Virus record (IMG/VR): IMGVR_UViG_3300042868_002472
Span: 1-57,556 of that record
Source of the DNA: a virus
Lineage: Duplodnaviria; Caudoviricetes
Reading direction: 5' to 3' (one strand)
Length of the DNA: 57,556 bases
How positions within the stretch are numbered: the first letter of the stretch is position 1; each line of letters starts with the position of its first letter. The notes beneath the pieces are model-generated. The model did not search any database, was not told where the DNA came from, and worked only from the letters and a program-made list of their open reading frames with translations. Shown here piece by piece: positions 3,237-48,308 of this stretch. Position numbers and translations under genes: made by a program.

Positions 3237-4190
3237 TTAATTTCTATTTTGTTTATCGTATTCAGCATAACGCTTAACGTAGCGTTGACGTAGTACGGGA
3301 TCATCCCAAACACCGGCCTCTTGCATTGCCGCCTTACGCTCAGGAGAAATATAAATTTCCTTGCGCGTTGATGACGGTGCGTGCTCACGACCAGAGCCTA
3401 CTGCGGGACCGCCAGCTGGCTTTCGTGCCGCTGGCTCCTTAAACTTCTCAGGGAGGCGACGCTTAACACGACTGTGTAGCTCATCCCAATAATCTTCAGT
3501 GCGTGGATCGTATCCCTCTTGTGAAAGACGCGCGTCAATTGCTAACACAATTGCCGAATCCTCGTCCTTACCAGCCGGATCGTACCACTTATTCTCAGCT
3601 AAAAACTCTTTAGCGTAATGCATTACCTCAGTATCAACACCCTGTTGCTTGGCTTGCGGCGGTTGATACGTTGATTGCTGTTGCTTGGTTTGCGCTAGTT
3701 GCTGCGCCTTAGCCATAGCTTGATCACGGTAACGCATTGCCTGTGCAACATCCTCACCGTTACCAGCCTCAACCGCGCGGGCAATGATTTTTTCAGATGT
3801 CTCAACCTCATACACCGCTTGCTGAATTTGCTGATCAATCTGACTAAGACTGCTTTGATGCGCGTGTGTCTCAACTGCACCAACACGACGCTCTAGCTCA
3901 TCGTTGCGAGTGCGTAAGAAGTTAAGCTCTAACTTATCACGATTAATCGCCTTCTCACGACGTTCTTTTCTTTCACGCTTTTCTTCACGGCGACGGGCGC
4001 GGATAGTTTCAATGTCGACCCCATCTTCGTCGTCTTTAGACTTGAGGCTACTGTCTTCCTCATCGTCGTCGTCTTCGTCTTTTATTTCTTCCTTTTCCGC
4101 TGGTTTACTAACAGCAACGTACTCGGTATCCTCTGAATCTTGTTCTAAATCTTCATCGTCCTCAACTATGAGGTTTTTATCTTCTGCCAT
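3237..4190 (-). CDS. putative capsid scaffolding protein
   Basis: Very acidic N-terminus and long coiled coil. Lies between portal and capsid. Confidence 0.65.
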   Translation of the reverse strand: MAEDKNLIVEDDEDLEQDSEDTEYVAVSKPAEKEEIKDEDDDDEEDSSLKSKDDEDGVDIETIRARRREEKRERKERREKAINRDKLELNFLRTRNDELERRVGAVETHAHQSSLSQIDQQIQQAVYEVETSEKIIARAVEAGNGEDVAQAMRYRDQAMAKAQQLAQTKQQQSTYQPPQAKQQGVDTEVMHYAKEFLAENKWYDPAGKDEDSAIVLAIDARLSQEGYDPRTEDYWDELHSRVKRRLPEKFKEPAARKPAGGPAVGSGREHAPSSTRKEIYISPERKAAMQEAGVWDDPVLRQRYVKRYAEYDKQNRN

Positions 4191-4206: not shown

Positions 4207-4611
4207 CTATAAGAAAGCACGGATTTTTAATGGATCGACTGTTACTTTACCAATTAAGTCCGTATCTTTAAAAATTACAAACATTGCTGTGGTTTCTTTA
4301 TCGATGGGTACTTCCCAACGATCACCACCATACTTTGCTACTCTTACAAAGTCACCCTTTTCACACCAAGCGCCCTCTGGCCATGACTCCATCGTGTTGC
4401 GGTTCTTAAAGGCTAGTGGGCCAACTGTCACTACTCGACCAACCTGCGTGTTCCATTTCTCGGTCTCTGTAGTCTCAGCCTGTAAAATAATACCGCCAGC
4501 TGTTTTAAGTTTTGGTGCTCTAATTTGTACTAAAACATAACTACCAAATGGTGTTATGCCTGGGTCTGCGTTTGGGAACGCGTCATTCAGCGTTTGTTCA
4601 GACATCATCAT
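4207..4611 (-). CDS. groES: GroES/Cpn10-like co-chaperonin
   Basis: PFGSYVLVQ...KTAGGIIL...GRVVTVGP...GDFV...KYGG...IFKDTDLIG matches the Cpn10 pattern. Confidence 0.8.
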   Translation of the reverse strand: MMMSEQTLNDAFPNADPGITPFGSYVLVQIRAPKLKTAGGIILQAETTETEKWNTQVGRVVTVGPLAFKNRNTMESWPEGAWCEKGDFVRVAKYGGDRWEVPIDKETTAMFVIFKDTDLIGKVTVDPLKIRAFL

Positions 4612-4913: not shown

Positions 4914-7412
4914 TTAAGGATTAGGGTTGGGGTTAATACCGGTGCCCGTAGTCATGCCGAACTTCTCGCCACTTAGTACTTCTACTGCTGCCAGTTCTTT
5001 AGCTGTTGCATTATCAGCCTCGTTCATTTGCAACCTAGCTGCCAAGTCGGCTTGCTTGCGTGCGTCTTCACGATCTTGCACCAGCTGCTCACGTTGCAAC
5101 ACAGCCTGCTCTTTACGATCAAGCTCTTGCATACGCTGAGCCAAGTCTTGCGCCTTGAGTGCGTTCTTCTGTTGCGCGTCCTTAGCTCGCTGATCAATCG
5201 CAGCTTGCTGAGTTTGTTGTGCCAACTGAGCCACAGCCATCGTTGGATCTTGTGGGCCAGGGCCTTGCATCTCCATAACTTGTTGCTCAAGCTGCGGCAT
5301 GATTTGACTCAATGATCCTAGTTGTTGCTCAATCACAGCCAATACTTGATTAATCACTTGAACTTGCTGCTCAGAGCTCTTATCAATCATTTTCGTGTCT
5401 TGCGCTGTATTAATGGCAGAGTGCGACTCGGCCAAGTAGTACTGAACAATATGATCGCGCAAGTGCGTGATGATTAGAGGCAAATAAGTACGCGCAATCA
5501 CTGGATTTTGACCAAATAACGGGCTTTGCAGGTAAGCTAAGTGCACATGCAAGTGAGCAACGTGGTCTTGTTGCGGTAAAACCATGATTGGTCTGTTCAT
5601 TGACGCTGCTGCGTTCTCAGACGCAGGGTCCATGTCCTGTGCTTCAGGTTTTTCAACCAATAAGTCCTCAGAATTAGGAATTTTTAGCTGTTTTAGGAAT
5701 AATTCTTCAACTTTGCGGACGTCATACACCATTGGCAACATTGTCGCGCGCTGTTGTACCGCCTGAATCTGCGCAAAACGCTGTGTTTCACTGAAAACAG
5801 CTGGGTCAGAGACAGGAATGACGTCCATCGGACCGTCAAAGTCACTCGGATCGACCATTTTCTCGCCAACCTCGTCCATAACCATGTCTTCGGTGAGGTA
5901 CGCACTGTTTAGACGGTGCACAACCTTCAAGACTTGGTTCATGGAGTTGTGTAGGCGAGCGTGAATTGATGAAAATACCACCATCCCTTGCTCAATTAGC
6001 GCCAAAGTCGTGCCTACTGGTGCGTTCGGGTTCTGATCGTACAGTTTTTCAAAGGACGTTTGAACCACACCCTTACCGGCGTCAACTAAAAAGCCTAGCA
6101 ACTGCATTAAAACAGGGCTTGGTGGATTAAACGGTATCGGCATTGCAATCTTACGCACGTCATCGATGTTAATGCCACCCTCAATCTCTACCACTTCGGT
6201 CGGTTGCGGGTTAAGGTTCTGGCCGTTAGGGCCACCTTTTAGTTTTAACATCGTTGGGATGTTCTGTATGTGCGCAGAATCTAACAGCGCACGCAATGCG
6301 CCTGTCGCTGCGCCACTCAAGCCGCCAATCATTTGCGTCAAGCCGATTGGGTACGCGCCGCGCCAAGGGATGAATGGGAACTCAACCATGTTGGTAAGGT
6401 TGGCGCGCGTATCATCGTCTGGTGCCCAGTTACGGTACACGGCCAAACACTTGCCGGTCGCCTTGTCAATTGTAATCAGGTACGGATCAAACTCGTCACC
6501 CTCAATGTCTGCGTGCGTATCGATCTCAAATATAGTACGCAGGCCGTCCTCGTTGTAAGAGTTCTCCTCACGTCCCTCAATCTTGTCATTAGCCTTAGAT
6601 GCTTTAGAGTACTCAATCTCATCAGGTAGACCTAGATCAACGTCACGGTACATGCCTGTGCTTACACGCTTCTCATACTCATACTCAGTCACATACTGGA
6701 CGTGCGTCTTGCGCTCAGCCGAGTAGTAGTTAGAGGCCGCGAACGGTAGGTACACATCATCGACAGGCACGAACTCACTGGTAATGCGGTTCTTGGAGTG
6801 ATCAAAGTACAGCTTGAGGTACTGCACGCCGCCTAGTGGCAACTGAGTGAACAGCTGCTCAAGGTCAGAGCGGAACTCAGGCATCTGCTCAGTTAGCTGC
6901 CAGTTCATGTAGGTCGCCTTGCGCTCGGCCTTCTCTGACTTCTTAACGTCAGTCTTACCAATAATCTTAGTGCGTACTGGACCGTGCGGTGGGAACAGCT
7001 CCTTCATGGCCCTCGCTGAGAAGTCAACACAGGCCTCGGTCATCATCGGGTGAACGACCTTGTTAGCGCCAGTGAACTGCGCCCCACCTGGTGCATCATC
7101 GCCCAGGCCAGTGCGACGGATACCCTCCTCGTACTGCTCGTCACGCTTCTTACGTGCTTCCTTGTCACGCTCAATCTTATCTAGCAAGTCGTCAACTAAA
7201 GTTTGCAACTCTCTAGGATCAATGTCATCAACAATATTAGCGAAGTGCTCTAACTGCGTCGCGCGGTCTTGCTCGTTCTCAAGCGTAACCATCGCACCAC
7301 CATCATCGGTGTCCGTTACGCCCGTGTCTTCCTCATCGAGCTCAATGTTCTCGCCGTCTTCGGTGTTGCCTTCGTCTAATACTTCTTCGTCAATAAACTT
7401 GTCTTTAGCCAT
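4914..7412 (-). CDS. portal protein (P22-like, long Q-rich C-terminal barrel)
   Basis: 832 aa. VHPMMTEA and YMNWQLTEQMPE motifs, coiled-coil C-terminus. Lies downstream of terL. Confidence 0.85.
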   Translation of the reverse strand: MAKDKFIDEEVLDEGNTEDGENIELDEEDTGVTDTDDGGAMVTLENEQDRATQLEHFANIVDDIDPRELQTLVDDLLDKIERDKEARKKRDEQYEEGIRRTGLGDDAPGGAQFTGANKVVHPMMTEACVDFSARAMKELFPPHGPVRTKIIGKTDVKKSEKAERKATYMNWQLTEQMPEFRSDLEQLFTQLPLGGVQYLKLYFDHSKNRITSEFVPVDDVYLPFAASNYYSAERKTHVQYVTEYEYEKRVSTGMYRDVDLGLPDEIEYSKASKANDKIEGREENSYNEDGLRTIFEIDTHADIEGDEFDPYLITIDKATGKCLAVYRNWAPDDDTRANLTNMVEFPFIPWRGAYPIGLTQMIGGLSGAATGALRALLDSAHIQNIPTMLKLKGGPNGQNLNPQPTEVVEIEGGINIDDVRKIAMPIPFNPPSPVLMQLLGFLVDAGKGVVQTSFEKLYDQNPNAPVGTTLALIEQGMVVFSSIHARLHNSMNQVLKVVHRLNSAYLTEDMVMDEVGEKMVDPSDFDGPMDVIPVSDPAVFSETQRFAQIQAVQQRATMLPMVYDVRKVEELFLKQLKIPNSEDLLVEKPEAQDMDPASENAAASMNRPIMVLPQQDHVAHLHVHLAYLQSPLFGQNPVIARTYLPLIITHLRDHIVQYYLAESHSAINTAQDTKMIDKSSEQQVQVINQVLAVIEQQLGSLSQIMPQLEQQVMEMQGPGPQDPTMAVAQLAQQTQQAAIDQRAKDAQQKNALKAQDLAQRMQELDRKEQAVLQREQLVQDREDARKQADLAARLQMNEADNATAKELAAVEVLSGEKFGMTTGTGINPNPNP

Positions 7413-7421: not shown

Positions 7422-10400
7422 TTAATTACAGTTCCAACGTTTTAACGATGCTGCCTTACGTGTAGGGTTGCCTTGCTCATCCTTCATTGGCCCAGGCATG
7501 CCTGACATGCGTGCGCAGAATGACTTGCGTCGTCCTGCGTCTGCCTTTGTTTTTGGATTTGGTGCCGGTGCCTTTAAGTTAGAGCCAGTGGCTGCATTGT
7601 ACTTGGCTCTTCCCTTTGCTGTTAGCCCTGCGCCCTTTGACACAGGCAGCTTCTCGCCTCGGCCAACAGACAATACAGGCCCACCCTTAGCGAAGCCTGG
7701 CACTGTTTGTTTAAACTCATACATCGCATCATAGTCCACCTCGCCACCATCTGCAAATGCGGGCGTCTCTTTTTTATTCCAGAACGGTGACTCACCCATC
7801 GCCTCACGCTTGTTAGCGCTGCGGATGGCTGTGGCCACTGCGTCCTCAGGCACGGTGCCCGTCTCACGAATGTAATTGATGTCAGCTGGGTGCATGCCCT
7901 CAACGATGCTCGGCATCTCACGGCCGTCCACGTTGATGGAGTACTCGGTCATCACGTCACGGCCGTTAGGCATGCGGATCTCGCCCAAGGCGCCAGTGTC
8001 CTTAGCCTCGCCAGTCTCACGGTTGCCGTAGTCTTTAAACTCGTACATCTCGTCGTAATCAGTGCCATCAGTCTCTACCGCGCCGCCATCTGCAAAGTTC
8101 TCTTCCTCGTACTGTGGCAGCATCTTAGATGAGCGCTTGCCGTAATCGGCTGATCGTCTTTGTATCTCGTCCTCGGTAGCACGTCTGCCGCGCTCCTTGA
8201 TCCCAGCCTCAACGCCGGCCATGTTCTCGTAGTAGTCACCGACGGCGTCGCTCTTAGGGCCAGTGAACGGTGAGAAGAAGTAGTCGGTGTACTGGTAGGC
8301 CTTGCCCATGTCCCTAGCCACGTCAGCTGGGATGTCTTGTCTGACACCGAAGTCGTAGCCACCGCCGTAGTTGATTGCCACATCAAGCGGCGAGCGGTTC
8401 ACTCGTGAGTTGCCGAGGTCGTCTAGGTACTTTTTCTTTAACGCCGATGAGAGCGCGTCTGGGTACTTGCCGTGCTCAGTAGCTTGCTCGTTGTATTGGA
8501 TGCGGTACTTGGCCGCCTTCGCTAACAGCTTAGCCTTGTCGAGCATCGATAGGTTGGCGAACGGGTCGCTCACCTTACCGCCCTCGTCCATGTGGACTGG
8601 GCCGCCTTCTTTAAATACTTTAGGAAAAATCTTAGCGTCACGAGGGTCACCTTCATGAAGGCTTCTATATATTGGCTCTGGACGAACCAATGGCTGCATC
8701 TCTAGCTCTTTCTTAAGAGCCTCGATGTACTCCTCTTGCGATTGTCTTGGTAGTCCTGAGCGCAAATCACCATAAGGTAGCACCTCAATAAGCGTAGCCT
8801 GATCACCTAGCTTATTCAAAGCTCTAGTGCGATGACGGCCTTCATGGCCAGTCATGTAAGGCTTTAATGGTATACCAACCTCGTCCTTACGCATTTGTAA
8901 GTATGGAACGTCAGAGAATCCGCTGTCTGTGGCAATCTTCGCCAAGTAGTCGATGTATTCATCATGGCTCATGAAGCTCTCTAAATCAGGGCTGTAGTTC
9001 TTATTGCTGGAAAATGATTTGCTTAACGGTTGCGCCCATTCTTCAAACTCCGACGGCCGCATAATAGTCAATGCTTGAGCGGTATCGCCTTTGCCAGTGA
9101 ATGCGTTCTTTAACGCGTTCTTGGTGTACTGCTGCTCAAGGTTAGGTACCTCATCGGCTGCGCGCTCTACGCGTTGTGCTCCGTAACGGCCATTGTACTT
9201 GGCCACTAGGTCCATCAAGTCCTTAATACCAGAGCGAACTATGCCGCCACCAGCGAACGCAGGTAGGCCTTGGTTAATCACGTAGTCACGTATCTCTGGC
9301 GTGATGTCGAAGCCCATCTGCTCAGACACGTTGTTGCCAAGTTGCACGCCGATAGGTTTAACGCGCTCCGTTACACCCATTGATTTCAGTATGTCGTTGG
9401 CCGTGCTGGGTATGATTTGATCGTAGTACGTCCTCATACCTTCGCCGCCGACCTGTAGATCCAAGCCAGATAGCGTCCTTGGTTGTGGTGGGGCGGCAAC
9501 GTCGCCGTATATTGATGGCTCTGCCTCCCATCCTACGCTAGTGCCTACTGGTGCCTCTGCGCCCTCAGTCTTAACAATCTTCTCTGCTATGTCTTTACCT
9601 AATTGATCAGCAAGCTGATCCTGCGTTAGGCCATCTCTTGAAATAACCGTTTGGCCATTTTTTATTGCTGAAAAGCCGTAGGTACCGTCAGGATTCATCC
9701 TATGATTTATGCTATCAATCTGCGTAGCCAGGTTGTAACGATTAGCCTGCTGCGTGCCAGTGGTCCAGGCCAAATGGCTTTGCCCCTCGTCAACCGCGCG
9801 CTCGATGGCTTTCTTCAAGCCCAACGCTGTCCAGTCGCCTGTGTCTTCGACGTATGGTCCGCGAGGTATGCCTTTTTCATTCTCATACATATTTCTAATC
9901 ATGGCTTTTGAGTTGTCGTCTAACTCTTCCCAGGGTGTTGCACCAACATTGGAAGCTTTTTGATTGTAGTACTCTTCTATCGTATTAGGTCTAAACCCTC
10001 TCTTCCTACCCTGCTGCGCCCAGTCTGACTGCAACTCCTCTAGGAAGAGCACGTCCTTGTTGTCAGGTGTAAGCTTAATGTTGGTGCGCAGGTGAGCCAA
10101 GACGTTGGGCTCGTCGAAGTGACCAGACCTAAAGTTAGATGGGTCACGGAGAACATCGCTAAGGTTGGGCTGATCAAACTCACGCACCACCCAGTCAGGG
10201 TTGTTGTTAATCTTCTCAAGCGTGCGCATCGGTATGGGCATTGTGCCACTAGCGAGGACGGTTCCGTTAGCGTCTGTAATCTCAAAGGCCTTATCCATTC
10301 TGATTTTAGGTGAGCTTGTGTTTGCAGGTAGATGGATAAGCGTCTCGGTGTAGTCCTCGCCGCCTGGCAACACGTACTTGCCGTACTGGGTCTCGTCGCT

Positions 10401-10679
10401 ACCATAGCCATCAGCGCGGAGGTTCTTGGTATTGATCTTGGGTGACTTCTCTTGAATGTATTTGACAATCTCAGCCTTGGTGAGCTTAGGCTGCTTCGCT
10501 AATAGCTCGTCTAGTCTGACGGCTAGTGCTTCCTTCTTCGCGCCTTTGGGTGCGTTGGCCTTGATGTACGCTGCCCACTGTGAGCTTGGCATGCTTTCTA
10601 GCTTGTGCGCAATCACCGCCCTCTCCAACGGAGAGTACATGTTCTTGATCTTGGTGAGTGCGCTAATTGGGCTCGGCAT
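7422..10679 (-). CDS. large modular (polyvalent) protein, probably virion-packaged
   Basis: Likely start is ATG 10679 (AGGGA RBS); ORF track start is 10724. N-terminal large-polyvalent-protein-like block (LFLEELQSDWAQQGR), ParB/Srx-like GHEGRHR motif, basic C-terminal module (RRKSFCARM...SLKRWNC). Six FxxGG-type linkers. Confidence 0.6.
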   Translation of the reverse strand: MPSPISALTKIKNMYSPLERAVIAHKLESMPSSQWAAYIKANAPKGAKKEALAVRLDELLAKQPKLTKAEIVKYIQEKSPKINTKNLRADGYGSDETQYGKYVLPGGEDYTETLIHLPANTSSPKIRMDKAFEITDANGTVLASGTMPIPMRTLEKINNNPDWVVREFDQPNLSDVLRDPSNFRSGHFDEPNVLAHLRTNIKLTPDNKDVLFLEELQSDWAQQGRKRGFRPNTIEEYYNQKASNVGATPWEELDDNSKAMIRNMYENEKGIPRGPYVEDTGDWTALGLKKAIERAVDEGQSHLAWTTGTQQANRYNLATQIDSINHRMNPDGTYGFSAIKNGQTVISRDGLTQDQLADQLGKDIAEKIVKTEGAEAPVGTSVGWEAEPSIYGDVAAPPQPRTLSGLDLQVGGEGMRTYYDQIIPSTANDILKSMGVTERVKPIGVQLGNNVSEQMGFDITPEIRDYVINQGLPAFAGGGIVRSGIKDLMDLVAKYNGRYGAQRVERAADEVPNLEQQYTKNALKNAFTGKGDTAQALTIMRPSEFEEWAQPLSKSFSSNKNYSPDLESFMSHDEYIDYLAKIATDSGFSDVPYLQMRKDEVGIPLKPYMTGHEGRHRTRALNKLGDQATLIEVLPYGDLRSGLPRQSQEEYIEALKKELEMQPLVRPEPIYRSLHEGDPRDAKIFPKVFKEGGPVHMDEGGKVSDPFANLSMLDKAKLLAKAAKYRIQYNEQATEHGKYPDALSSALKKKYLDDLGNSRVNRSPLDVAINYGGGYDFGVRQDIPADVARDMGKAYQYTDYFFSPFTGPKSDAVGDYYENMAGVEAGIKERGRRATEDEIQRRSADYGKRSSKMLPQYEEENFADGGAVETDGTDYDEMYEFKDYGNRETGEAKDTGALGEIRMPNGRDVMTEYSINVDGREMPSIVEGMHPADINYIRETGTVPEDAVATAIRSANKREAMGESPFWNKKETPAFADGGEVDYDAMYEFKQTVPGFAKGGPVLSVGRGEKLPVSKGAGLTAKGRAKYNAATGSNLKAPAPNPKTKADAGRRKSFCARMSGMPGPMKDEQGNPTRKAASLKRWNCN

Positions 10680-10710
10680 AGCATTCCCTAAACGGATTGG
10701 CTTTCCCGCG

Positions 10711-10739
10711 ATTGTAAAACACAATCAATTAAATTACAA
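10711..10739 (-). promoter_or_regulatory. sigma70-like promoter
   Basis: TTGTAA-N17-TACAAT on the minus strand, upstream of the modular protein gene. Confidence 0.55.
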
Positions 10740-12281
10740 CTACATCGCGTAAGGATTCGTTCTCTCCTTGCGTGGCGCAACGTCGTACTCGTCCTTGTTG
10801 TTATCGATGCTCAGCATGCGCGTGTCACGCAGGTAGATCAGCGCCTGCGTCATGCTGTCGACCATGTCGTCGTGCTCGCCGTTAGGGAAGATCATCAGCT
10901 CGTGCATCATCGCGTCGGTCCATGCAGGTGCGCGACCTGGCGTCTTCTTAGACTCAGGCAGGTACACCAGACCAGACTCAAGCAAGGGAGCAACCGCATG
11001 CACCCGTGTCACCTTGTCTGCTCGTCCTGGGTTGTACGGATGGCATGGCACGCCGCTGCGCCTCAAGTCTTGCATCAAGCTAATGCCCGATCCCTTCTCC
11101 TCGATCAGCACCACGTCGACCGTCTTGTCCTTGTCGCCGTACTTGGACTTGTACTCCTCGCCCATCTTCTTGCGCAGGTCCGGGTAACTTAGGTGCTCCT
11201 TCCAACAATCAAGCAACACGACGGCCTTACCGTTCGCGTGATTGAATATGCCCCAGGTGCTGCACGCTGTCGGGTCGTTCTGTGTCTTCTCAGTGAAGGC
11301 CGTGTCGTAGGACTGCACAACGTACATGAGCTTAGGCAACGGCTCATCGGCTGGCAGCAGCTTGAACCAGTCACGCTTGATGATACCGCCGGCCGCTGGT
11401 GACGGACGTTGTTGCAGCTGACCAGAGGTGCCGTACTCGCCAAGCTGCACCTTGAGCTCGTCAATCTCTTTGATCCCGAAGCGCCCCTTCCACAGCAGCT
11501 CGCCATCCTCGGTGCGCGGATCGTAGTTGCCCAGCGTGGTCTTGCTGCGTCTGCCCTTCTCGAACTGAGCCGGCAAGCAAAGGTGGTCCCAGCCACCCTG
11601 CTTGAGTACGTGACCAGAGAGGTCGTTCTCGTGCAGCCGCTGCATCACGATCACCTTGCAGCCAGTCTTAGGATTGTTAAGCCGCGTGCTCATCGCCTGG
11701 TCCCACCACTCAAGCGTGGACTCACGCATCGTGTCGGACTGCGCCTCCATCGAGTTGTGCGGGTCATCGACCACTAGCACGTCACCACCATGGCCCGTGG
11801 TCGACGCGCCAACAGAGGTAGCGAACCGGTAGCCTGACTTGTCGTTCTCGAAGAACGTCTTAGCGTTCTGGTCGCCAGTCAGCGCGAACCGATGGCCCCA
11901 GCGTTCTTGGAACCAGGGGCTGTCAATCAGTCGCCGGCACTTGAGTGAGTCACGCACCGACAGGCTGATCGCGTAAGAGGCAAACAGCCATCGGAACTGC
12001 GGCTGCGTCATCCACACCCACACCGGCCACATCACAGCGACCTGTATCGACTTCATGTGCCTGGGCGGTACGTTGATGAGCAGGTTGCGTATCTCGCCCC
12101 TCGTGACGGCCTCCAGGTGCTCGGAGATGGCATCGAGGTGCCAGTTGCCGATGTAAGGCGTGCCAGGCTCGATGACGTGCCACGCCATCTTAGTGAACTC
12201 ACTCAAAGACTTCTCAGCGCGGCGCCTGTCGTGCTCCAGCTGTATGTCCCGCAGTGGGATCACGTTAGACATGTCGATCAT
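10740..12281 (-). CDS. terL: terminase large subunit
   Basis: NVPPRHMKS Walker A, VLVVDDPH Walker B, VMQRLH coupling motif, SYDTA and HDDMVDS nuclease motifs. Confidence 0.95.
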   Translation of the reverse strand: MIDMSNVIPLRDIQLEHDRRRAEKSLSEFTKMAWHVIEPGTPYIGNWHLDAISEHLEAVTRGEIRNLLINVPPRHMKSIQVAVMWPVWVWMTQPQFRWLFASYAISLSVRDSLKCRRLIDSPWFQERWGHRFALTGDQNAKTFFENDKSGYRFATSVGASTTGHGGDVLVVDDPHNSMEAQSDTMRESTLEWWDQAMSTRLNNPKTGCKVIVMQRLHENDLSGHVLKQGGWDHLCLPAQFEKGRRSKTTLGNYDPRTEDGELLWKGRFGIKEIDELKVQLGEYGTSGQLQQRPSPAAGGIIKRDWFKLLPADEPLPKLMYVVQSYDTAFTEKTQNDPTACSTWGIFNHANGKAVVLLDCWKEHLSYPDLRKKMGEEYKSKYGDKDKTVDVVLIEEKGSGISLMQDLRRSGVPCHPYNPGRADKVTRVHAVAPLLESGLVYLPESKKTPGRAPAWTDAMMHELMIFPNGEHDDMVDSMTQALIYLRDTRMLSIDNNKDEYDVAPRKERTNPYAM

Positions 12282-12811
12282 ACGTCAGTCACCACCTTAA
12301 TGCTATCTAGGCTCTCGTCTGAGGCCTTCGCTGTTAGTCTGAGGTACTCAGCTAGCTCGTCGTCAGTTAAGCGGCTCAGCTTGATCTCACTAGCCAGTGA
12401 GCCGTTTATGTTTATGTTCTTGCTCTCGACCTTGTCAACGTACAGGCCACTCACCTTCCCACGCAGCATCTCACCATTGATGGCAGCAGAGTACTGATCC
12501 TTGGCTGCCGCCAGGTCACTCAGCTGGCCCAACTTAATCAGGTGCTCTTCGAGTGTGATCTGCACCTTCTTGATCACAGGAGCGCGTAGCTCAGCAATCC
12601 TTGCAATTAGCTTGGGTTTTGACATGAGCTCATTTGCAGCTCGATAAATGGTTGAATCCTTGTAGCGACTGGTGTCGTAGGCCGCTCTGTAGGCATCTGA
12701 CTGGTTGTTGCCCCTGACAATGTTCTGACAGAAGACCTCCTCTTGCGCGGTCAAGCCGCTAGGCATCAGTGTCGTCGATGCTCTCTTGCGTGACTCACTT
12801 ACTTCACTCAT
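12278..12811 (-). CDS. terS: terminase small subunit
   Basis: LTAQEEVFC...NQSDAYRAAY HTH. Directly upstream of terL, with overlap. Confidence 0.85.
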   Translation of the reverse strand: MSEVSESRKRASTTLMPSGLTAQEEVFCQNIVRGNNQSDAYRAAYDTSRYKDSTIYRAANELMSKPKLIARIAELRAPVIKKVQITLEEHLIKLGQLSDLAAAKDQYSAAINGEMLRGKVSGLYVDKVESKNININGSLASEIKLSRLTDDELAEYLRLTAKASDESLDSIKVVTDV

Positions 12812-13931: not shown

Positions 13932-16287
13932 TCCATACATAATGATGCCCGTCGCCATAGATTTTTATCTTGCGTCCAGGTATCGGGGCGTACCCCATTT
14001 CGGACAAAATAATCGAGGCTGTTCTGTTCTTAGGAAGCTCCCCACCCTGACCAACGATGATCTTATTTAACCAGGTAACATCGATTATCTTATCGTTAAT
14101 AACCTCGCAGGTATTGTTGCTGATAGCGTCATCGATCGCGTCCCACTCAGGCGACACGCTCAAGGCTTTCATCTCGCTCTTGGCGCCGGTGTCTGGCGCA
14201 CGACCGCTAGGGTCAAAGCTCTTAGCGATCTGCCTATTAAGTAAGAACCTAGCGATCGCGTCTGGGCGACGTCGTGTGTTAGCGAACAGCTCATCGAAGT
14301 ACTCGCGAGCCTTCTCACGGCCACCGAAGGCATCGAATAACTCCTCCTCGCTCTGGATCCTAGAGAACATAGCGCAGTAGCGACGCTCACCGTCACCAAG
14401 TGGGACCGCGTCCTTGTGGTTGGTCAGCAACAAGTACGATGTGAAGTTAGGCACGGTCCTGTGGTCGCGGCCCTTCTCCTCGATCTGGATGGTTGAGTTA
14501 GAGATAATAGGCTTAAGCTTGTCCAGGATCTCGTACTTGTTAGTGCCGGCGATGCGGATCTCTTCGACCACAGTCACCAGTGAGCCATGCGCCCAGCCAG
14601 TAAAGCGACCAGAGATGGCCTGCGTGTCGAGCGACCTAACGTTGCTGCCAAGCAGCTCCTCGAAGACGTTGCCGAAGTAACTCTTGCCGGTGCCGGGCGC
14701 ACCTTGCAGCAGCATGGCCCAGCCCACTCGCTTGCCTGGGTTCTGGTAGATGTAAGCCATCCAGTCTAGGAAGAGCTCCTGCTCGGAGGGACGCTCAAGC
14801 GTGAAGGCGACGTGGCTCAGGAACATGTCCACGACCCTCTGGCCGTCAGCGTCAATCGTGTCACACGGGGCGACGCCCTTAGGTGAGTAAGAGTTCATCA
14901 TGCGCTTGTGTTCGTACGTGAAGAACTTACCGGCAGCCGGGAAGAACATCACGTCCACCACGGTCTGAAGGTTGTAGTTAACCAACGCAAGCTGTGAGGC
15001 CTGACGCTCGGCAGCCACGCACTCAGGCTCGCGGTCGAACTTGGCGTTGAAGGCCTCGCGCTTGATCATGTAGTCGGCCACCTCGGCGTTGGCGAACGAG
15101 CATGTGTTCTCAACGTAGACCCAAGGGTCGAGCCAGTCCGGCTGCACAACGGAGTGAGCCCTGGCGACGCGACTGGCCTGCATCTCTTTGGTGATGGCGC
15201 CCTTGGCGACCTTGTTAATCTTGCCGAAGTGATCAGCGAGCTCGCTCACGACACCGGACCGGTAGACGGGAGGCAAGACGTGATCGCTCATGGCGGTGAT
15301 CTTGTCCTTGAAGAGCTGGTACTCGTCGAAGGTGGTGACACGCGACGCCTCAAGCAGCAGCGTGTCGAACATGTTGTCCACAGCGACGACGCCGCCGGCC
15401 TCCTTGACCCAGTGCATGATAGAGGCGAACGTGATGGGTGACTCGGCGCCACCAAACGAGCGCCACTTGGTGGGCATCTCTGAGTCGTTGAAGCGTTCAC
15501 TGTCGGCACTGGACCAGCCAACCCAACGCTCGAAGCCAACAGCCGAGCCCTCGAACTGATGAAAGAGCGCCATCCCTACCTTGAGCCAGGTGTCGTACGT
15601 GGCGGCAGTGGGATCAAGCGCGGACAGGTAGGCGTCGACCATCTCAGGCGTGATGTCGAGCGGCTGGTTGGCGAGCACACTGCTGAGCTCATCGAGCTCG
15701 TCGGACGAGTCGCTGATGACGTGGCCGCGCACGCCGTGAGGCTCGACACCGTGGATGACCTCAGGCACCTGAAGCTCACCGCCAGCCTGGGTCATGGTCC
15801 AGAACTCACCGCCCTCTGGGTGCTGAGGCAAGAACATTGCCTGGTTGGGCACGGAGGAGCACTTGTCGAAGGCCTCGAAGGGGATGGAGGTGCTCAGCAT
15901 GAAGCTGATCGCGAAGGCGCGGTACTCGTCCGGCGTGAGCTCACGGCTCAGAGGCGCGACGACACGCACGCGAGGCTTGGTGTTGCTGTGACGGTAGCTA
16001 GAGTAAGCGACGAACGAGCAGGGCACGCTCATCTCAAGATCAAACGCCAGGTCATCGACCGTGCCAACGTAGCCGTCGATGTCTAACACCAGCAGCGTAC
16101 GGGCGAGCATGAACTCTTCCTTGCGCACGTCACCACTGTAGTAACCACCGACCAGGTACTTGCCGCCCTTCTTAGGTGTAACAACATGCGTCGACAGTAC
16201 GGTCATGATGTGTTGCCAATCACGAACGACGCCGGCTACCTTATTACTCGATTCGGTCTTACCAATCGAGAGCTTGTATGTTTTCAT
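13828..16287 (-). CDS. primase-helicase (AEP/RepB-like primase, PriCT-2, SF3/D5-like helicase)
   Basis: LVLDIDG and YSSYRH...PRVRVVAPL primase motifs, YDTWLKVGMAL PriCT-2, GAPGTGKS Walker A, VVEEI Walker B, LLTNH motif C. Alternative start at 16332. Confidence 0.85.
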   Translation of the reverse strand: MKTYKLSIGKTESSNKVAGVVRDWQHIMTVLSTHVVTPKKGGKYLVGGYYSGDVRKEEFMLARTLLVLDIDGYVGTVDDLAFDLEMSVPCSFVAYSSYRHSNTKPRVRVVAPLSRELTPDEYRAFAISFMLSTSIPFEAFDKCSSVPNQAMFLPQHPEGGEFWTMTQAGGELQVPEVIHGVEPHGVRGHVISDSSDELDELSSVLANQPLDITPEMVDAYLSALDPTAATYDTWLKVGMALFHQFEGSAVGFERWVGWSSADSERFNDSEMPTKWRSFGGAESPITFASIMHWVKEAGGVVAVDNMFDTLLLEASRVTTFDEYQLFKDKITAMSDHVLPPVYRSGVVSELADHFGKINKVAKGAITKEMQASRVARAHSVVQPDWLDPWVYVENTCSFANAEVADYMIKREAFNAKFDREPECVAAERQASQLALVNYNLQTVVDVMFFPAAGKFFTYEHKRMMNSYSPKGVAPCDTIDADGQRVVDMFLSHVAFTLERPSEQELFLDWMAYIYQNPGKRVGWAMLLQGAPGTGKSYFGNVFEELLGSNVRSLDTQAISGRFTGWAHGSLVTVVEEIRIAGTNKYEILDKLKPIISNSTIQIEEKGRDHRTVPNFTSYLLLTNHKDAVPLGDGERRYCAMFSRIQSEEELFDAFGGREKAREYFDELFANTRRRPDAIARFLLNRQIAKSFDPSGRAPDTGAKSEMKALSVSPEWDAIDDAISNNTCEVINDKIIDVTWLNKIIVGQGGELPKNRTASIILSEMGYAPIPGRKIKIYGDGHHYVWIRGAVDDDRILEVKTIVRDFYNNKNGGFLEKVEF

Positions 16288-16312
16288 TGGAGTATCCAAA
16301 CAGTTGTTATTA

Positions 16313-16516
16313 TTAAAGGTCAGCTGACTCACTCGGCGCTACAATATCCAGCGCCTTGAAGCGGCCCTTGGTGATACGCTCAACCTCAATCGCCCGACGA
16401 GCAGGCAACCCTCCCGTGGCGAGCCACTGACTGACCGCCCCCTGCGTGACCTCTAACGCGTCGGCCATCTTGTCCTGCGTCCCGAAGTACGCAACCAGCT
16501 CTACTAACTTACTCAT
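16313..16516 (-). CDS. Cro/YdaS-like HTH regulator
   Basis: YFGTQDKMADALEVTQGAVSQW...LPARRAIEVERIT. Confidence 0.85.
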   Translation of the reverse strand: MSKLVELVAYFGTQDKMADALEVTQGAVSQWLATGGLPARRAIEVERITKGRFKALDIVAPSESADL

Positions 16517-16547
16517 TATGTTTTACCCTTTAGTTAAATACAGAAAT

Positions 16548-16581
16548 ATATTAGCACAAGTAATATTAGCTGTGGTAATAT
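16548..16581. promoter_or_regulatory. tandem palindromic operators (family 2) in a divergent promoter region
   Basis: ATATTAGCacaAGTAATAT at 16548-16566 and ATATTAGCtgtGGTAATAT at 16563-16581. Extended -10 TGgTAATAT. Confidence 0.65.
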
Positions 16582-16623
16582 TATTTCGCAACACATCATT
16601 TAAAACTTAAAAGGAAAACTAAA

Positions 16624-16995
16624 ATGGCACTAGAAGATAACATCAAAGAACTAACACTGGCCGTCCACAAGCTGATCGCTGCGCTAGACGTTACAACCGC
16701 GAGCGTAACGCCGGCACAGACCGAGACAGTCTACGAGGTTGAGCTAGAGGCGCCGGCACCTAAGAAGGCCAAGCCTGAACTCAAGGCCGTGCCCACTAAA
16801 GAGGTAGCGGCCGACACACCTGAGCAGACGCACGAGAAGCTGAAGGCGCTGTGTCTAGACTTGGTACGCAAGGACCCGGCCAACCGTGATAAGGTCAAGG
16901 CCGTGATCTCTGGGTTCGGTGCGACCTTAGTTAGCGACGTCACCGAAGACAAGCTGCCGGAGCTCGCTAAACAACTAATGGCGCTGGCATCATGA
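16624..16995 (+). CDS. hypothetical protein (replication module)
   Basis: AAGGA RBS, P/A/K-rich linker and a helical C-terminal domain. Precedes the DUF2800-like gene. Confidence 0.7.
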   Translation: MALEDNIKELTLAVHKLIAALDVTTASVTPAQTETVYEVELEAPAPKKAKPELKAVPTKEVAADTPEQTHEKLKALCLDLVRKDPANRDKVKAVISGFGATLVSDVTEDKLPELAKQLMALAS

Positions 16996-18128
16996 GCACC
17001 GCGCACGCTAAGCTGAGCGCCAGCGGAAGCGCCAAGTGGTCCCTCTGCCCTGGCAGCGTGTTCGCCGAGAAGGACTTTCCCAACACGACCTCAGTCTTCG
17101 CCGAAGAGGGCACAGCGGCGCACGAGCTGGCTGAGCTGTTGCTGCGAGGCGATGACGAGCTAACGTTGGTGGGCGACGTGATAGGCGTGACGCTACCAGA
17201 TAGCGGCGTGGTCGTCACGCAGGACATGTACGACTACGTGCAGACGTACGTTAGCTACGTCAACTCGATAAGCGGCGAGCTGTTCGTTGAGCAGCGGGTG
17301 GACTTTAGTCACATCGCGCCAGACGGGTTCGGGACCAGTGACGCCATCGTGATCAACGACAACACCATGACCATCATCGACCTTAAGTACGGCAAAGGCG
17401 TGCGCGTTGACGCCGAGAACAACACGCAGGGCATCCTGTACGCGTTGGGCGCCGTGAACGACTACGGCATGCTGTTCCACATCAAGACTATTAATATAGT
17501 TATTGTGCAGCCGCGCCTCGATCACATCTCCGAGTGGACCATCGGCATCGACGAGCTTAACCGTTGGGGTGAGCGCCTCAAGCAAGCGGCCGAGCTGGCG
17601 CTGAGCGAGAACGCACCGAGGTCACCAGGCGAGAAGCAGTGTCAGTGGTGCCGAGCCAAGGCCACCTGCCCGGCGTTGGCTAAGCTGACCGAGAGCACGC
17701 TGATGACGTCGTTCGACAACCTAGACACCAGCAAGCCAGAGCAGCTGACCGACGAGCAGCTGAAGATTGCGCTAGATAACAAGAAGCTGATTGTCTCATG
17801 GTTCGATGCCGTCGAGACGCTGGTGACCGACCGCCTAAGCGCGGGCCAAGGGTTCAACGGTTACAAGCTGGTAGCCGGTAGGGCCAACCGCGCCTGGCGT
17901 GATGAGGCAGCGACAGCGGCCGCACTGCGTGACGTGCTAGGCGAGGAGACGCTCTACACGCGCAAGATCATATCGCCGGCGCAGGCCGAGAAGGAGCTGG
18001 GCAAGTCACGCGCTGAGCTGCTTGACGACCTGGTCACCAAGCCAGAGGGCGCGCCAACGCTAGTGCCTGAGTCAGACAAGCGACCACCGGTCAACGTCAG
18101 TAAAAATGACTTTGACTTAATTAATTAG
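16992..18128 (+). CDS. DUF2800 / Cas4-like PD-(D/E)xK exonuclease
   Basis: HAKLSAS...W..CPGS, EGTAAH, GTSD, IIDLKYGKG and CQWCRAKATC (Fe-S cysteines). Confidence 0.85.
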   Translation: MSTAHAKLSASGSAKWSLCPGSVFAEKDFPNTTSVFAEEGTAAHELAELLLRGDDELTLVGDVIGVTLPDSGVVVTQDMYDYVQTYVSYVNSISGELFVEQRVDFSHIAPDGFGTSDAIVINDNTMTIIDLKYGKGVRVDAENNTQGILYALGAVNDYGMLFHIKTINIVIVQPRLDHISEWTIGIDELNRWGERLKQAAELALSENAPRSPGEKQCQWCRAKATCPALAKLTESTLMTSFDNLDTSKPEQLTDEQLKIALDNKKLIVSWFDAVETLVTDRLSAGQGFNGYKLVAGRANRAWRDEAATAAALRDVLGEETLYTRKIISPAQAEKELGKSRAELLDDLVTKPEGAPTLVPESDKRPPVNVSKNDFDLIN

Positions 18129-18140
18129 CTGTGCTAATAT
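18112..18140 (+). promoter_or_regulatory. promoter with overlapping family-2 operator
   Basis: TTGACT-N17-TAATAT with TGn extension. Operator TAATTAGCtgtGCTAATAT at 18122-18140. Confidence 0.7.
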
Positions 18141-18196
18141 TCTTTTGTGCGCTGTCTAGGCACAATAAACTTTAAATGTAAAAGGAAAAAAGTAAA

Positions 18197-18712
18197 ATGG
18201 CTCAAATTAAACTTAAAAATGTACGACTATCATTTCCCTCACTGTTTCATAAGGCGTCGTTCCAAGGCAACGAAACTAAGTACGAGGCTACCTTCCTACT
18301 AAACAAGAAGACACACGCGGACACAATCGCTGAGATCCAATCTGCAATCGCTGATAAAGTTAAGAACGATCTAAAAGGTGCCAAGCTTGGTGCTGACAAG
18401 ATCTGTCTTAAAGATGGCGACGAGATTGACTACGACGGTTACGCCGGTCACTTTAGTATCAAGGGCGCTAACGGCAAACGTCCGTTGGTTATCGGTAAGG
18501 ACAAGTCACCAATAACAGAGGACGATAATGTCATCTACGCTGGTTGCTACGTCAACGCGATAATCGAGCTTTGGGCACAGGACAACGGCTTCGGTAAGCG
18601 TATCAACGCTAACCTGTTGGCTGTTCAATTTGCCGGTGACGGTGAACCGTTCGGTGACGGCGGTACGAGTGTCGGAGTTGATGACTTCGATGTGATTGAC
18701 GACGACTTTTAA
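18197..18712 (+). CDS. ssb: single-stranded DNA-binding protein (DUF2815 / T7 gp2.5-like)
   Basis: VRLSFPSLF, LKDGD, YAGCYVNA and DGEPFG motifs. Acidic C-terminus ending in F. Confidence 0.85.
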   Translation: MAQIKLKNVRLSFPSLFHKASFQGNETKYEATFLLNKKTHADTIAEIQSAIADKVKNDLKGAKLGADKICLKDGDEIDYDGYAGHFSIKGANGKRPLVIGKDKSPITEDDNVIYAGCYVNAIIELWAQDNGFGKRINANLLAVQFAGDGEPFGDGGTSVGVDDFDVIDDDF

Positions 18713-18731
18713 TACGCGTTACATGTAACAC

Positions 18732-18754
18732 CGCCCCTCGATGTCTGAGGGGCG
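18732..18754 (+). terminator. GC-rich hairpin between ssb and polymerase (attenuator or stabiliser)
   Basis: CGCCCCTC-GATGTCT-GAGGGGCG. No clear U-tract follows. Confidence 0.45.
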
Positions 18755-18778
18755 CATTAACTAAAAGGCCACCCCTTA

Positions 18779-20548
18779 ATGTTTATAATCGATACCGAGG
18801 TCTACTCGGATTATTTCCTACTCTCCATGATGCGCCTAGATGATGGCAAGATCCGTCACTTTGAGATGCACGCCACCGCTGAGCTAGACGTCAAGAAAAT
18901 ACAAAGCCTGTTTAAAAATGAGACAGTCATTAGCTTCAACGGCAACAGCTATGACATACCAATTATCAGCGCAGCCATCGCTGGCTACAGCAATAAAAAA
19001 ATCAAAGACCTGTCTGACAGTATCATCAAGAGCAATCAGCCCAGCTGGACAATATTGCGGGCTCATAGTTTTTCGTTGATTGAGACCAATCATATTGACT
19101 TGATTGAGGTCGCCCCTGGACGGTCCAGCCTTAAGATTTACGGCGGTCGCATGAACGCCCCCAAGATGCAAGACCTACCGATTGATCCAAACAGCACCAT
19201 CTCGCCTAAACAGCGAGCCGAGCTTCGAGAGTATTGTGAGAACGACTTACACACGACCGCCTTACTGTACAAGGCACTGAAACCACAGATTGACTTGCGT
19301 GTTGCCTTGAGTGCGCAGTATGGCATGGACCTACGCAGTAAGAGCGATGCGCAGATTGCCGAGACCGTAATCATCAGCGAGATGACTAAGATCACTAAGC
19401 AAAGTTACGGCAAGGTGGCCGTCAAGGACAACATGACCTTTAGCTACATTGATCCTGGCATCGTAAACTTTACCGACACGAAGCTTAACCTACTGATCAA
19501 CAGCCTGTGCGAGCATAAGTTCACGCTTGGGCTAAACGGTGCCGTGCAGATGCCTGACTGGTTGCGTGACACTAAGATCAACATCGGCAAGAGCGAGTAT
19601 CAGATGGGCATAGGTGGCCTGCACAGTTGCGAGAAGTCGCAGCACATCAAGGCCAACGACGAGCACATGCTGATCGAGCTTGACGTGGCCAGCTACTACC
19701 CTAACATTATATTGCAGCAGCGCCTCGCACCTAAGAACATGGGCGCGACGTTCTTAAAGGTTTACCAAGGCATCGTCACTCGCCGGCTGAAGGCCAAACG
19801 AGATGGCGACAAGGTAACGGCTGACGTGCTTAAGATTGCCGTCAACGGCAGCTTCGGTAAGCTTGGCAGCAAGTACAGCGCGCTGTTCGCGCCTGAGCTA
19901 CTTATACAGACGACCATCACTGGCCAACTTGCGTTGCTGATGCTGATCGAGGCGGTCGAGCTGGCTGGCGCTAAGGTCGTCAGCGCTAACACCGACGGCG
20001 TTGTAATCCTGTGCCCACGCAAGCTAGAGAAGCGCATCGAGGAGGTGGCCTTCGATTGGATGCTGCGCACCTCGTTTGACCTTGAGCGCACAGACTACCG
20101 AGCACTAGCCAGCCGTGACGTGAACAGTTACGTGGCCGTGAAGCTAGACGGCAAGGTGAAGGGGAAGGGCGTCTTTGCTGGTGCCGGCCTAGCCAAGAAC
20201 CCAGACGACCCGATCATCGCGCAGGCGGTGGCCCAGTACGTTGCTAACGGGATCCCGCTAGAGATTACCATACGCAACTGCCGTGACATTACGCAGTTCG
20301 TCACCATACGACGCGTGCAGGGCGGTGCAACGTGGCAAGGTGAGTACCTAGGTAAGGCCGTGCGGTTCTATCACAGCAACGCTGTACCGAGCTCGCAGTG
20401 CATTCATTACGCTAGTAACAGTAATCGCGTGCCTAACTCAGCGGGCGCGAGACCATTGATGCAGTTGCCGTTCACGTTTCCAGAGGACGTTGACTACAAC
20501 TACTACCTGGTTGAGGCTGAGAAACTTTTATGTGAGGTAGGGCTATGA
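18779..20548 (+). CDS. DNA polymerase, family B-like, with 3'-5' exonuclease
   Basis: Exo I DTE, Exo II FNGNSYD, Exo III YCENDL. Polymerase motifs DVASYYP, KIAVNGSFGK and NTDG. Confidence 0.85.
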   Translation: MFIIDTEVYSDYFLLSMMRLDDGKIRHFEMHATAELDVKKIQSLFKNETVISFNGNSYDIPIISAAIAGYSNKKIKDLSDSIIKSNQPSWTILRAHSFSLIETNHIDLIEVAPGRSSLKIYGGRMNAPKMQDLPIDPNSTISPKQRAELREYCENDLHTTALLYKALKPQIDLRVALSAQYGMDLRSKSDAQIAETVIISEMTKITKQSYGKVAVKDNMTFSYIDPGIVNFTDTKLNLLINSLCEHKFTLGLNGAVQMPDWLRDTKINIGKSEYQMGIGGLHSCEKSQHIKANDEHMLIELDVASYYPNIILQQRLAPKNMGATFLKVYQGIVTRRLKAKRDGDKVTADVLKIAVNGSFGKLGSKYSALFAPELLIQTTITGQLALLMLIEAVELAGAKVVSANTDGVVILCPRKLEKRIEEVAFDWMLRTSFDLERTDYRALASRDVNSYVAVKLDGKVKGKGVFAGAGLAKNPDDPIIAQAVAQYVANGIPLEITIRNCRDITQFVTIRRVQGGATWQGEYLGKAVRFYHSNAVPSSQCIHYASNSNRVPNSAGARPLMQLPFTFPEDVDYNYYLVEAEKLLCEVGL

Positions 20549-39725: not shown

Positions 39726-39958
39726 GTTGGCCTACGTTTTTCTAGTATGTCAAAGACGCGCTCGATGGCATTCTTTAAATCTTTCACATCCTGGCGGTAA
39801 TCGTCTTTAGAGACGTAATCCTTGGGTAACTCTTCGCGTAGCTTTGCTAGATCGGCTTTTAATTCTTGCGACGCTGTCCATAGCATCCGCAGCACCCATC
39901 CAAAGACTGAGCCAGTCCCCATGATGACGATATTTACTAGTCCTTGTTCCATGTTCAA
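39722..39958 (-). CDS. membrane-anchored coiled-coil protein (lysis cassette)
   Basis: N-terminal TM helix and LPKDYVSKDDY motif. Confidence 0.55.
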   Translation of the reverse strand: MNMEQGLVNIVIMGTGSVFGWVLRMLWTASQELKADLAKLREELPKDYVSKDDYRQDVKDLKNAIERVFDILEKRRPT

Positions 39959-43798: not shown

Positions 43799-43808
43799 CC
43801 TTTTCTCC

Positions 43809-48298: not shown

Positions 48299-48308
48299 TT
48301 CTCTCTCG

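Follow-up and report, generated by a model that had tools for sequence, protein, structure and literature searches.

The multi-module gene and its locus

The window analysed here is a whole virus record, IMG/VR IMGVR_UViG_3300042868_002472 (57,556 bases, in which 63 open reading frames (ORFs) were analysed), from a podovirus-type phage that encodes, between its terL and portal genes, a long protein built of unrelated modules and punctuated by six copies of a short glycine-glycine peptide, hereafter the seam motif (Table 1). The carrier protein adds a member to a class already known, that of the polyvalent proteins (Iyer et al. 2017); no earlier description was found of the conserved peptide at its joints.

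Table 1. Coordinates of the multi-module gene, its modules and seam motifs, and of the other features named in the text (aa, amino acids)
Feature	Position in window	Strand	Remarks
Polyvalent (multi-module) protein gene	7422..10679	minus	1085 aa from the ATG at 10679
Same gene, longer ORF version	7422-10724	minus	1100 aa; between terL and portal
N-terminal conserved block, aa 23-489	9258..10658	minus	Helical lead-in and GNAT-like acyltransferase fold with large inserts
Seam motif 1, FAGGGIV, aa 490-496	9237..9257	minus	FAGGG at 9257-9243
ParB/Srx-like module, aa 497-703	8616..9236	minus	G-H-E-G-R-H-R
Double seam motif 2+3, FKEGGPVHMDEGGKV, aa 704-718	8571..8615	minus	Two halves: FKEGG at aa 704 (8615-8601), MDEGG at aa 712 (8591-8577)
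Module 3, aa 719-876	8097..8570	minus	Mostly helical, no family found
Seam motif 4, FADGGAV, with DYDEMYEFK, aa 877-897	8034..8096	minus	FADGG at 8096-8082; DYDEMYEFK at aa 889
Module 4, aa 898-989	7758..8033	minus	Small widespread domain
Seam motif 5, FADGGEV, with DYDAMYEFK, aa 990-1005	7710..7757	minus	FADGG at 7757-7743; DYDAMYEFK at aa 997
Seam motif 6, FAKGGPV, aa 1011-1017	7674..7694	minus	FAKGG at 7694-7680
DUF6321 (PF19846), aa 1018-1100	7425..7673	minus	Basic module with two Cys
Putative ejection/internal protein, 1297 aa	24991..28884	minus	N-terminal SLT transglycosylase; strict FGLGGAV at aa 524 (27295-27315), then YAEGG at aa 533
Putative internal virion protein, 862 aa	28887..31475	minus	Adjoins the 1297-aa gene; YADGGAV at aa 244 (30726-30746), FYNGGAV at aa 320 (30498-30518)
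Small basic protein, 113 aa	56051..56392	minus	FAEGGKI at aa 11 (56342-56362)
terS	12278-12811	minus	
terL	10740-12281	minus	
Portal	4914-7412	minus	
GroES-like co-chaperonin	4207-4611	minus	Pfam Cpn10, 36 bits
Scaffold-like protein	3237-4190	minus	Acidic/basic
Two small ORFs without known function	between scaffold and capsid genes	minus	184 aa and 201 aa
HK97-type capsid protein	1071-1985	minus	
Putative internal protein, 659 aa	32825-34804	minus	
Sugar/nucleotide-sugar enzyme cluster and sulfotransferase	39955-43798 and 46529-48319	minus	
Three RCC1-repeat proteins	43809-46085, 48309-49445, 49458-50840		Interleave the sugar cluster
HNH endonuclease with AP2 domain	51257-51847	minus	Overlaps the next ORF

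Residues are numbered throughout on the 1100-aa version of the ORF, which opens at an alternative TTG at 10724. The true start is likely to be the ATG at 10679 (residue 16), judging from comparison with relatives, since close homologues begin there (VLPGG lies at residue 103 in them and at 118 here) and since the Atlas record of the protein begins at residue 16.

Membership of the polyvalent class is indicated by the chain holding at least two unrelated effector-type domains (GNAT-like and ParB/Srx-like folds and DUF6321, plus two homology blocks), by the gene lying among the virion genes of a portal-terminase phage, and by homologues that share PF18760 (ART-PolyVal), PF18763, PF18857, PF18823 and PF04002, one PF18857 homologue being named 'LPD38 domain-containing' by one source. 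A search of NCBIfam with the protein returned no family; no MuF (SPP1 gp7) match appeared in Pfam or PHROGs at E-values up to 1, a distant relative being still possible.

A conserved peptide at the module seams

The sequence-only reading of this DNA, made without database searches, had placed six FxxGG-type motifs and two DYD[EA]MYEFK peptides in the protein, and all of them lie exactly where it put them. The motif is longer than was then seen, five copies being reported as F-[A/K]-x-G-G-x-V and one reading M-D-E-G-G-K-V. Six copies of the strict form [FYM]xxGGx[VI] are present where shuffling gives a mean of 0.085 (at most 3, and six in none of 20,000 shuffles), and the loose form [FYM]xxGG six times against 0.86 expected (4 of 20,000 shuffles). 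Phenylalanine or methionine stands three residues ahead of the glycine pair at six of the nine GG sites of the protein, the other three lying within modules (VLPGG 118, LQVGG 423, INYGG 784). Across 358 distinct contexts in 120 long proteins the consensus begins with F in 44%, M in 32% and Y in 23%; the next residue is A in 68%, and the glycine pair, with one variable residue on either side, precedes V in 67%. F stands three before GG at 227 of 1350 GG sites, against 3.1% of composition.

Of 268 distinct strict contexts in homologues, 61 continue with a second motif within 12 aa, 37 with a D-Y-D-x-M-Y-E-F type peptide, 34 with a helix start of the form x-V-K..A..L and 32 with the end of the protein. 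Tandem motifs without any intervening domain occur, and proline directly follows GG in 20 of 255 contexts and in two of the six copies here. At aa 712 the Met form M-D-E-G-G makes up the latter half of an overlapping pair, G-G-x-V-H-M-x-x-G-G, and in the six examples printed from the 61 double contexts the second copy likewise has Met or Leu; elsewhere Met forms stand alone, as in a terminal M-K-R-G-G, so that the seam may have two subtypes. An internal translation start at this Met-type motif was considered and set aside, there being no convincing ribosome-binding sequence ahead of the ATG at aa 712.

Codons vary freely among the copies (TTC/TTT, GCT/GCA/GCG-type, GGT/GGC/GGG, GTT/GTC/GTG/GTA). 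Because the copies differ at synonymous sites, selection acts on the peptide and not on the DNA, and the same variation rules out the motif as a DNA repeat.

The motifs had been said to fall at the joins between unrelated modules, and alignment breakpoints do pile up there. In BLAST comparisons with 119 homologues, the ends of matching segments gather at aa 491-500 (27 starts, 31 ends), 701-720 (14 starts, 54 ends), 871-900 (10 starts, 16 ends) and 991-1020 (27 ends); many relatives end at the position of seam motif 5. In the full-length AlphaFold2 model, with a mean predicted local distance difference test score (pLDDT) of 61.5 and an N-terminal block well folded to residue 489, all six motifs lie in or border segments with pLDDT below 50 (491-498, 676-720, 859-898 and 983-1053); this test discriminates for the first motif only, since the C-terminal half is poorly modelled overall.

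Identity of the modules

Of the module identities first proposed, the two unnamed blocks and the basic C...C module, now identified as DUF6321, are borne out; a ParB/Srx-like fold is indicated by weak scores, and the N-terminal block can be described as having a GNAT-like fold. In that block the AlphaFold2 10-residue means are mostly 70-91, dropping to 37-68 near aa 101-120 and 381-430. From about aa 95 to 489, all 50 listed matches in VIA-align, a search independent of Foldseek, are acetyltransferases, with Z of 7.1-9.9 over some 110-145 of about 400 residues; the best is 6edw/8g8k (Z 9.9, root-mean-square deviation 3.2, 131-132 residues aligned), and tRNA-acetylating toxins match at Z 8.2-8.9 (TacT3 8.9, AtaT 8.4). 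Because these scores are middling, the block is called no more than GNAT-like. A Q-V-G-G-E-G sequence (Q-x-x-G-x-G) at aa 424-429 sits at a strand-to-helix turn of the model and is likely, as modelled, to be the cofactor-binding turn of the fold. The block has no Pfam match, and Foldseek with the whole model against the PDB gave none at E 0.001 or below; the ESM Atlas returned only unnamed viral clusters for aa 16-495 (scores 0.85-0.88), and one source gives two of the giant homologues the name GNAT.

Modelled alone, the ParB/Srx-like domain reaches a pLDDT of 82 and a predicted template modelling score of 0.81. Its top Foldseek rows are mostly ParB, Noc, PadC, KorB and sulfiredoxin, weakly matched (E 0.025-0.6), and a wide VIA search gave sulfiredoxin at Z 6.0 and 5.4, with 15 chains at Z of at least 2 and a top ten of mostly ParB and sulfiredoxin. 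Sequence searches found nothing comparable: the block has no Pfam match (PF02195 and PF18763 included) and no PDB sequence match, and phmmer searches of PDB sequences with the protein and with a profile of the ParB-like block gave no meaningful match. G-H-E-G-R-H-R is invariant or nearly so across 15 sequences, and fits the [DE]-G-x-H-R-x-x-A pattern. The same letters also spell H-E-x-x-H (aa 644-648), a coincidence relevant to the question of cutting discussed below; G-H-E-G-R-H as a zincin HExxH site was rejected, as the motif spans the end of a strand and the start of a helix and not a single helix, and as both fold searches returned ParB/Srx.

Module 3 showed no stand-alone form among 80 short matches. 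Module 4 has 257 representatives at E 0.001 or below, occurring alone (about 100-140 aa) or within proteins of up to 3034 aa, and its stand-alone forms begin at the equivalent of aa 898. DUF6321 is recognised by Pfam at aa 1030-1097 (E 2.3e-23, 83 bits against a gathering threshold of 28.5); it is C-terminal in five PHROGs (141-928 aa) and makes up almost the whole length of two others (99 and 156 aa). No literature on DUF6321 was found.

Module turnover and stand-alone modules in relatives

A near-length search gave 423 homologues, the Pfam domains of the 120 listed including ART-PolyVal, ParB, DUF6973 and PF18838, and a search of longer proteins added 1170 homologues of 1926-5000 aa with ART-PolyVal, ddrB-ParB, LPD38, RadC, GGDEF, SLT and other domains. 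In viral contigs at least 600 stretches were matched, and relationship was confirmed for 596 of them. In 14 related viral loci (L001-L014), the terL/portal flank is kept in the 12 that show one (seven both genes, five one; two are too short), and between these same flanking genes the length of the gene runs from 681 to 1430 aa by gain and loss of modules. Compared with a first related complete phage (G001), the ParB-like core has been swapped and both flanks are 67-84% identical. In a related 57-kb phage (G003; L108-L110, loci 41041-45069 and 15873-19379), terL abuts the portal gene with nothing between, and the GNAT-like domain is found in a 1168-aa protein that closes the ejection-protein cluster and itself ends in K-K-K-G-G plus a short tail; to judge from this arrangement, the GNAT-like domain may be packed and delivered along with the ejection proteins. 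In a third (G004), DUF6321 is a separate gene of 134 aa. A further homologue, in MW202675, lies two genes past the portal amid large genes annotated as peptidase M15 and type I restriction enzyme.

Stand-alone homologues starting or ending at motif positions, foreseen by the sequence-only reading as a check, were seen for three modules (ParB/Srx-like, 898-989 and DUF6321); many short matches are contig-end fragments and were excluded from the counts. ParB-like solo proteins, on contigs of 7.9-16 kb, end in the motif and a Lys-rich tail of 10-11 residues, and 13 of 14 aligned homologues of the ParB-like module carry the motif at its C-terminal end. Of solo module 4 proteins, 21 of the 23 printed end, by reading, in xxxGG and a basic tail of 11-17 residues. 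Solo DUF6321 genes begin at the position of motif 6, that of MW202483 at its very Phe, and lie near head genes: in the terL-portal interval in MW202483, in the scaffold-capsid interval in T7-like cyanophages, and in Venkman two genes ahead of a terminase gene that directly adjoins the portal gene. Long proteins behave likewise, 60 of 119 long homologues ending no more than 30 aa after [FYM]xxGG, and 32 further ones finishing, by reading of the printed ends, in KKKGG and six residues.

This turnover between constant flanks, together with the replaced ParB-like core, is what would be expected if the motif were a DNA-level recombination signal, a short homology for the exchange of module cassettes such as has been proposed for the junctions of polymorphic toxin systems, for which conserved junctions are reported (PMC3482391). 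Such a signal is nonetheless very improbable: the six copies share the peptide and not the codons, seven residues correspond to too little identical DNA, and the motif is retained at true protein ends; exchange at the seams could moreover be a by-product of any of the other readings discussed here.

Restriction of the motif to a few proteins

In the whole phage the strict motif occurs ten times, in four of the 63 ORFs and in none of the other 59 (proteome shuffle mean 1.44, maximum 6). Besides the multi-module protein, the carriers are two large putative ejection or internal proteins encoded by adjoining genes and a small basic protein. The motif of the 1297-aa protein is retained in G001; the two motifs of the 862-aa protein flank a stretch rich in Pro, Gln and Met, and its G001 counterpart has two motifs as well. 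The 113-aa basic protein, which also has KKGG and CGG sites, matches a 136-aa protein of G001 by BLAST, and by position only its counterparts are Lys/His/Gly-rich proteins of 301 aa in G003 and 499 aa in G004. These possible, much longer counterparts (G003 51468-52373; G004, L113 region, 51582-53081) are proposed from position alone; the 499-aa candidate is an array of His/Lys/Gly-rich repeats such as Y-K-H-G-G-K and A-T-G-G-A-I. The same restriction is seen in three related complete phages (4 of 64, 2 of 71 and 3 of 75 ORFs), one carrier in G004 being a 914-aa protein. The T7-like cyanophage S-TIP37, which has a solo DUF6321, shows seven loose matches, one of them strict (FIQGGPV), in no pattern, and is uninformative.

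A second short conserved motif was noticed in the 659-aa putative internal protein, where Y-K-R-G-G is followed by A-H-I-N-P-M-E-A...G-G-S-G-T-I-N-P..G-L-P-E-F (aa about 92-150); it too is retained in the G001 counterpart.

A distribution of this kind bears on another function one could give the peptide, that of a passive joint: a structural cap or tight turn closing a domain and lending flexibility for storage and for threading through the tail channel, with no partner and no cutting, and kept since it is copied along with each module. The predicted linkers in which the motifs lie agree with it, as do Phe 490 as the last ordered residue of the N-terminal block in the AlphaFold2 model, the suitability that a Gly-Gly pair with hydrophobic flanks would have for a tight turn, and the faithful company the motif keeps with the end of the ParB-like module. 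A hinge, however, is useless at the C-terminus of a stand-alone protein, where the motif is nevertheless kept with a conserved tail, and the joint leaves unexplained the tandem copies without domains, the strong conservation of Phe/Tyr/Met, Ala and Val with free codon choice, and the restriction to 4 of 63 ORFs when other multi-domain proteins of the phage lack the motif. Because of the end caps and the restricted distribution the passive joint fits poorly, and it is regarded as unlikely.

A possible docking tag or cleavage site

The reading put first here, tentatively and at somewhat less than an even chance, is that the motif is an uncut docking or packing tag which also marks module seams. 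The protein would consist of independent modules in a row (the GNAT-like acyltransferase, the ParB/Srx-like domain, the two unnamed modules and the basic DUF6321), every one closed by a [F/Y/M]-A-x-G-G-x-V peptide. After this there often comes either a short amphipathic peptide of acidic character (D-Y-D-x-M-Y-E-F type) or the opening helix of the next module. The [F/Y/M]-A-x-G-G-x-V peptide would be a module-end tag, selected at the protein level and common to the other likely head-internal proteins of the phage; left uncut, it would be a handle, present in several copies, by which these proteins are docked or packed into the procapsid or its internal core. As every module carries it, the peptide would also provide a register for the gain, loss and exchange of modules in relatives. 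As a polyvalent effector the protein probably resides in the head and enters the host by ejection, and I infer that it travels in the virion, docks there through the peptide and stays uncut. In favour of the tag, the motif occurs in this protein, in the two putative ejection proteins and in the small basic protein, and nowhere else among the ORFs.

The sequence-only reading took the peptide for a reusable linker, either a cleavage site or a capsid-loading tag. The reusable, conserved joint between unrelated modules is supported; of the two functions, the tag ranks above the cut.

If the chain were a polyprotein, a protease of the phage or the host would cut it at or beside Gly-Gly, either within the head or once it has been ejected, freeing the GNAT-like, ParB-like, unnamed and DUF6321 modules and stripping the short tails, on the model of the T4 internal proteins, which lose their targeting peptide, and of the adenovirus core precursors. 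The hydrophobic-x-x-G-G form does resemble the sites of adenain-type, C39 and papain-like viral proteases. The modules behave independently and come in a different order in distant homologues (P0031-P0035 have the GNAT-like block at the C-terminus), stand-alone genes begin at motif positions, and the short conserved tails past the last motif could be removable targeting peptides. Processing into units has been proposed for polyvalent proteins, and DdrB of P1 is processed before packaging, according to the main text of Iyer et al. (PMC5512222). With a site-like motif, with the processing that these authors expect and with many ORFs of the phage lacking an assigned function, cutting stays a serious rival, albeit an unlikely one.

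Against it, no peptidase family was recognised in the 63 ORFs with Pfam, in 51 ORFs with PHROGs, or among the Pfam domains of the 120 near-length homologues listed, and the MPTase domain, the processing agent of Iyer et al., was not found. The 184-aa and 201-aa ORFs of the scaffold-capsid interval, considered as protease candidates, gave no match to PDB sequences, to Pfam or to a PHROG of known function, and Pfam and PHROGs recognised no cognate Gly-Gly protease (of the adenain, African swine fever virus pS273R or C39 type), an unrecognised one being possible. The motif itself is awkward as a site: the hydrophobic residue would stand at P5 and not at P4 if cleavage followed GG, the Val at the second place past GG equals the upstream Ala in conservation, proline occurs directly after GG at the frequency given above, and tandem or double motifs would release peptides of 8-20 residues. 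Stand-alone modules, besides, keep the motif and a short tail instead of ending at GG. The uncut tag is ranked first because of the lack of a peptidase family or MPTase, the proline after GG, the tiny tandem products and the retention of the motif at protein ends.

Several points nonetheless weigh against an uncut tag. No binding partner was identified for the motif; a predicted complex of the capsid protein, the scaffold-like protein and aa 870-1100 (score 0.01, mark 0.32) counts neither way. Hydrophobic motifs ending in GG are cut sites of several viral proteases, and a hidden protease is possible because so many phage ORFs are without assigned function. The low pLDDT of the C-terminal half weakens the argument from linkers there. 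In relatives the motif is patchy: 93 of 120 giant homologues (1926-5000 aa) lack its strict form, which occurs 0.116 times per 1000 aa against 0.065 expected, and in the wider family of module 4 it stands within 35 aa downstream in 31 of 118 cases against 92 of 1880 control windows (fivefold the control rate). By these same counts the motif can be neither a general property of the polyvalent family nor an intrinsic part of module 4. Because it is sparse in both the giant homologues and the wider module 4 family, a universal partner such as the portal or the capsid protein is not implied.

The two functions could also be joined, the peptide and its acidic helix docking the cargo in the procapsid and being cleaved afterwards by a protease that no current family model recognises. 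This combination, which is unlikely, would make the peptide a signal common to all head-internal proteins of the phage group, freeing GNAT-like and ParB-like enzymes, basic DNA-binding proteins and small peptides.

Neighbouring genes

Beyond the capsid gene lie an SU10-type adaptor and then several large genes for putative ejection proteins, an SLT transglycosylase domain being present in one of them. Head and adaptor annotations of the phage include Phage_capsid_4, SU10-adaptor and GroES-like, and none of the listed Pfam or PHROG matches is crAss-specific. The GroES-like gene, retained in G001 and G004, occupies the portal/scaffold interval where the prohead protease sits in many phages. The presumed mobile loop of its product reads T-A-G-G-I-I-L; a likeness to the seam motif is an idea only, the hydrophobic pattern not being the same.

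Farther along the window is a sugar/nucleotide-sugar enzyme cluster (epimerase, PfkB-type kinase, cupin, cytidylyltransferase-like protein, kinase, methyltransferase and family-25 glycosyltransferase) with a sulfotransferase. The RCC1-repeat proteins that interleave it resemble tail fibres, and the HNH endonuclease within the tail-fibre block is probably a homing endonuclease.

Comparison with known systems and implications

In its main text, the survey of Iyer et al. 2017 (PMC5512222) places a GNAT family beside ART in phage polyvalent proteins and argues for their packaging in the capsid. The protein described here is like these in joining unrelated effector-type domains in one chain, in the position of its gene near the portal and terminase genes, in its mosaicism, in its GNAT and ParB/Srx-type domains and in having homologues with ART-PolyVal, ddrB-ParB, LPD38 and RadC; it is unlike them, as there presented, in that MPTase is absent, and most of the giant homologues are without the motif. 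The main text of that survey does not describe a conserved joint peptide. No description of one was found in the literature, and the supplementary alignments of Iyer et al. might show it.

The T4 capsid targeting sequence offers another parallel, being a portable short peptide and the sole common feature of diverse injected anti-defence proteins, as related in PMC3012670. Like the seam motif, it is a short peptide shared across cargo, and it brings internal proteins into the scaffolding core (PMC3012670, same account). Unlike it, the seam motif is internal or C-terminal and present in six copies. In T4 the peptide is one leader at the N-terminus, which the prohead protease cuts off; Pfam and PHROGs reveal no such protease in the present phage.

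The adenovirus protease cuts core and capsid precursors at (M/I/L)-X-G-G|X and (M/I/L)-X-G-X|G. The seam motif shares with these sites a hydrophobic residue followed by Gly-Gly, occurrence on basic DNA-associated and other internal virion proteins, and close spacing; it differs in that the hydrophobic spacing is off by one position, that a conserved Val follows GG and that no cysteine protease gene was found here. Encapsulin cargo-loading and microcompartment encapsulation peptides similarly address unrelated enzymes into a protein shell (of the HK97 fold in encapsulins); each is a short peptide or amphipathic helix at a terminus, set off from the enzyme by a flexible Gly-rich linker. In contrast to the repeated seam motif, a putative tag, they occur once, at a terminus, and are demonstrated to bind the shell.

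Polyvalent proteins are thought to be the first weapons delivered by a phage. If the module-end peptide is what is proposed here, it would be a handle for finding cargo proteins in uncultured phages, would show the sites at which modules are naturally exchanged, and, as a candidate portable tag, might carry foreign proteins into capsids. Along the same line, were the peptide both tag and cut site, tailed phages would possess a core maturation system resembling that of adenoviruses.

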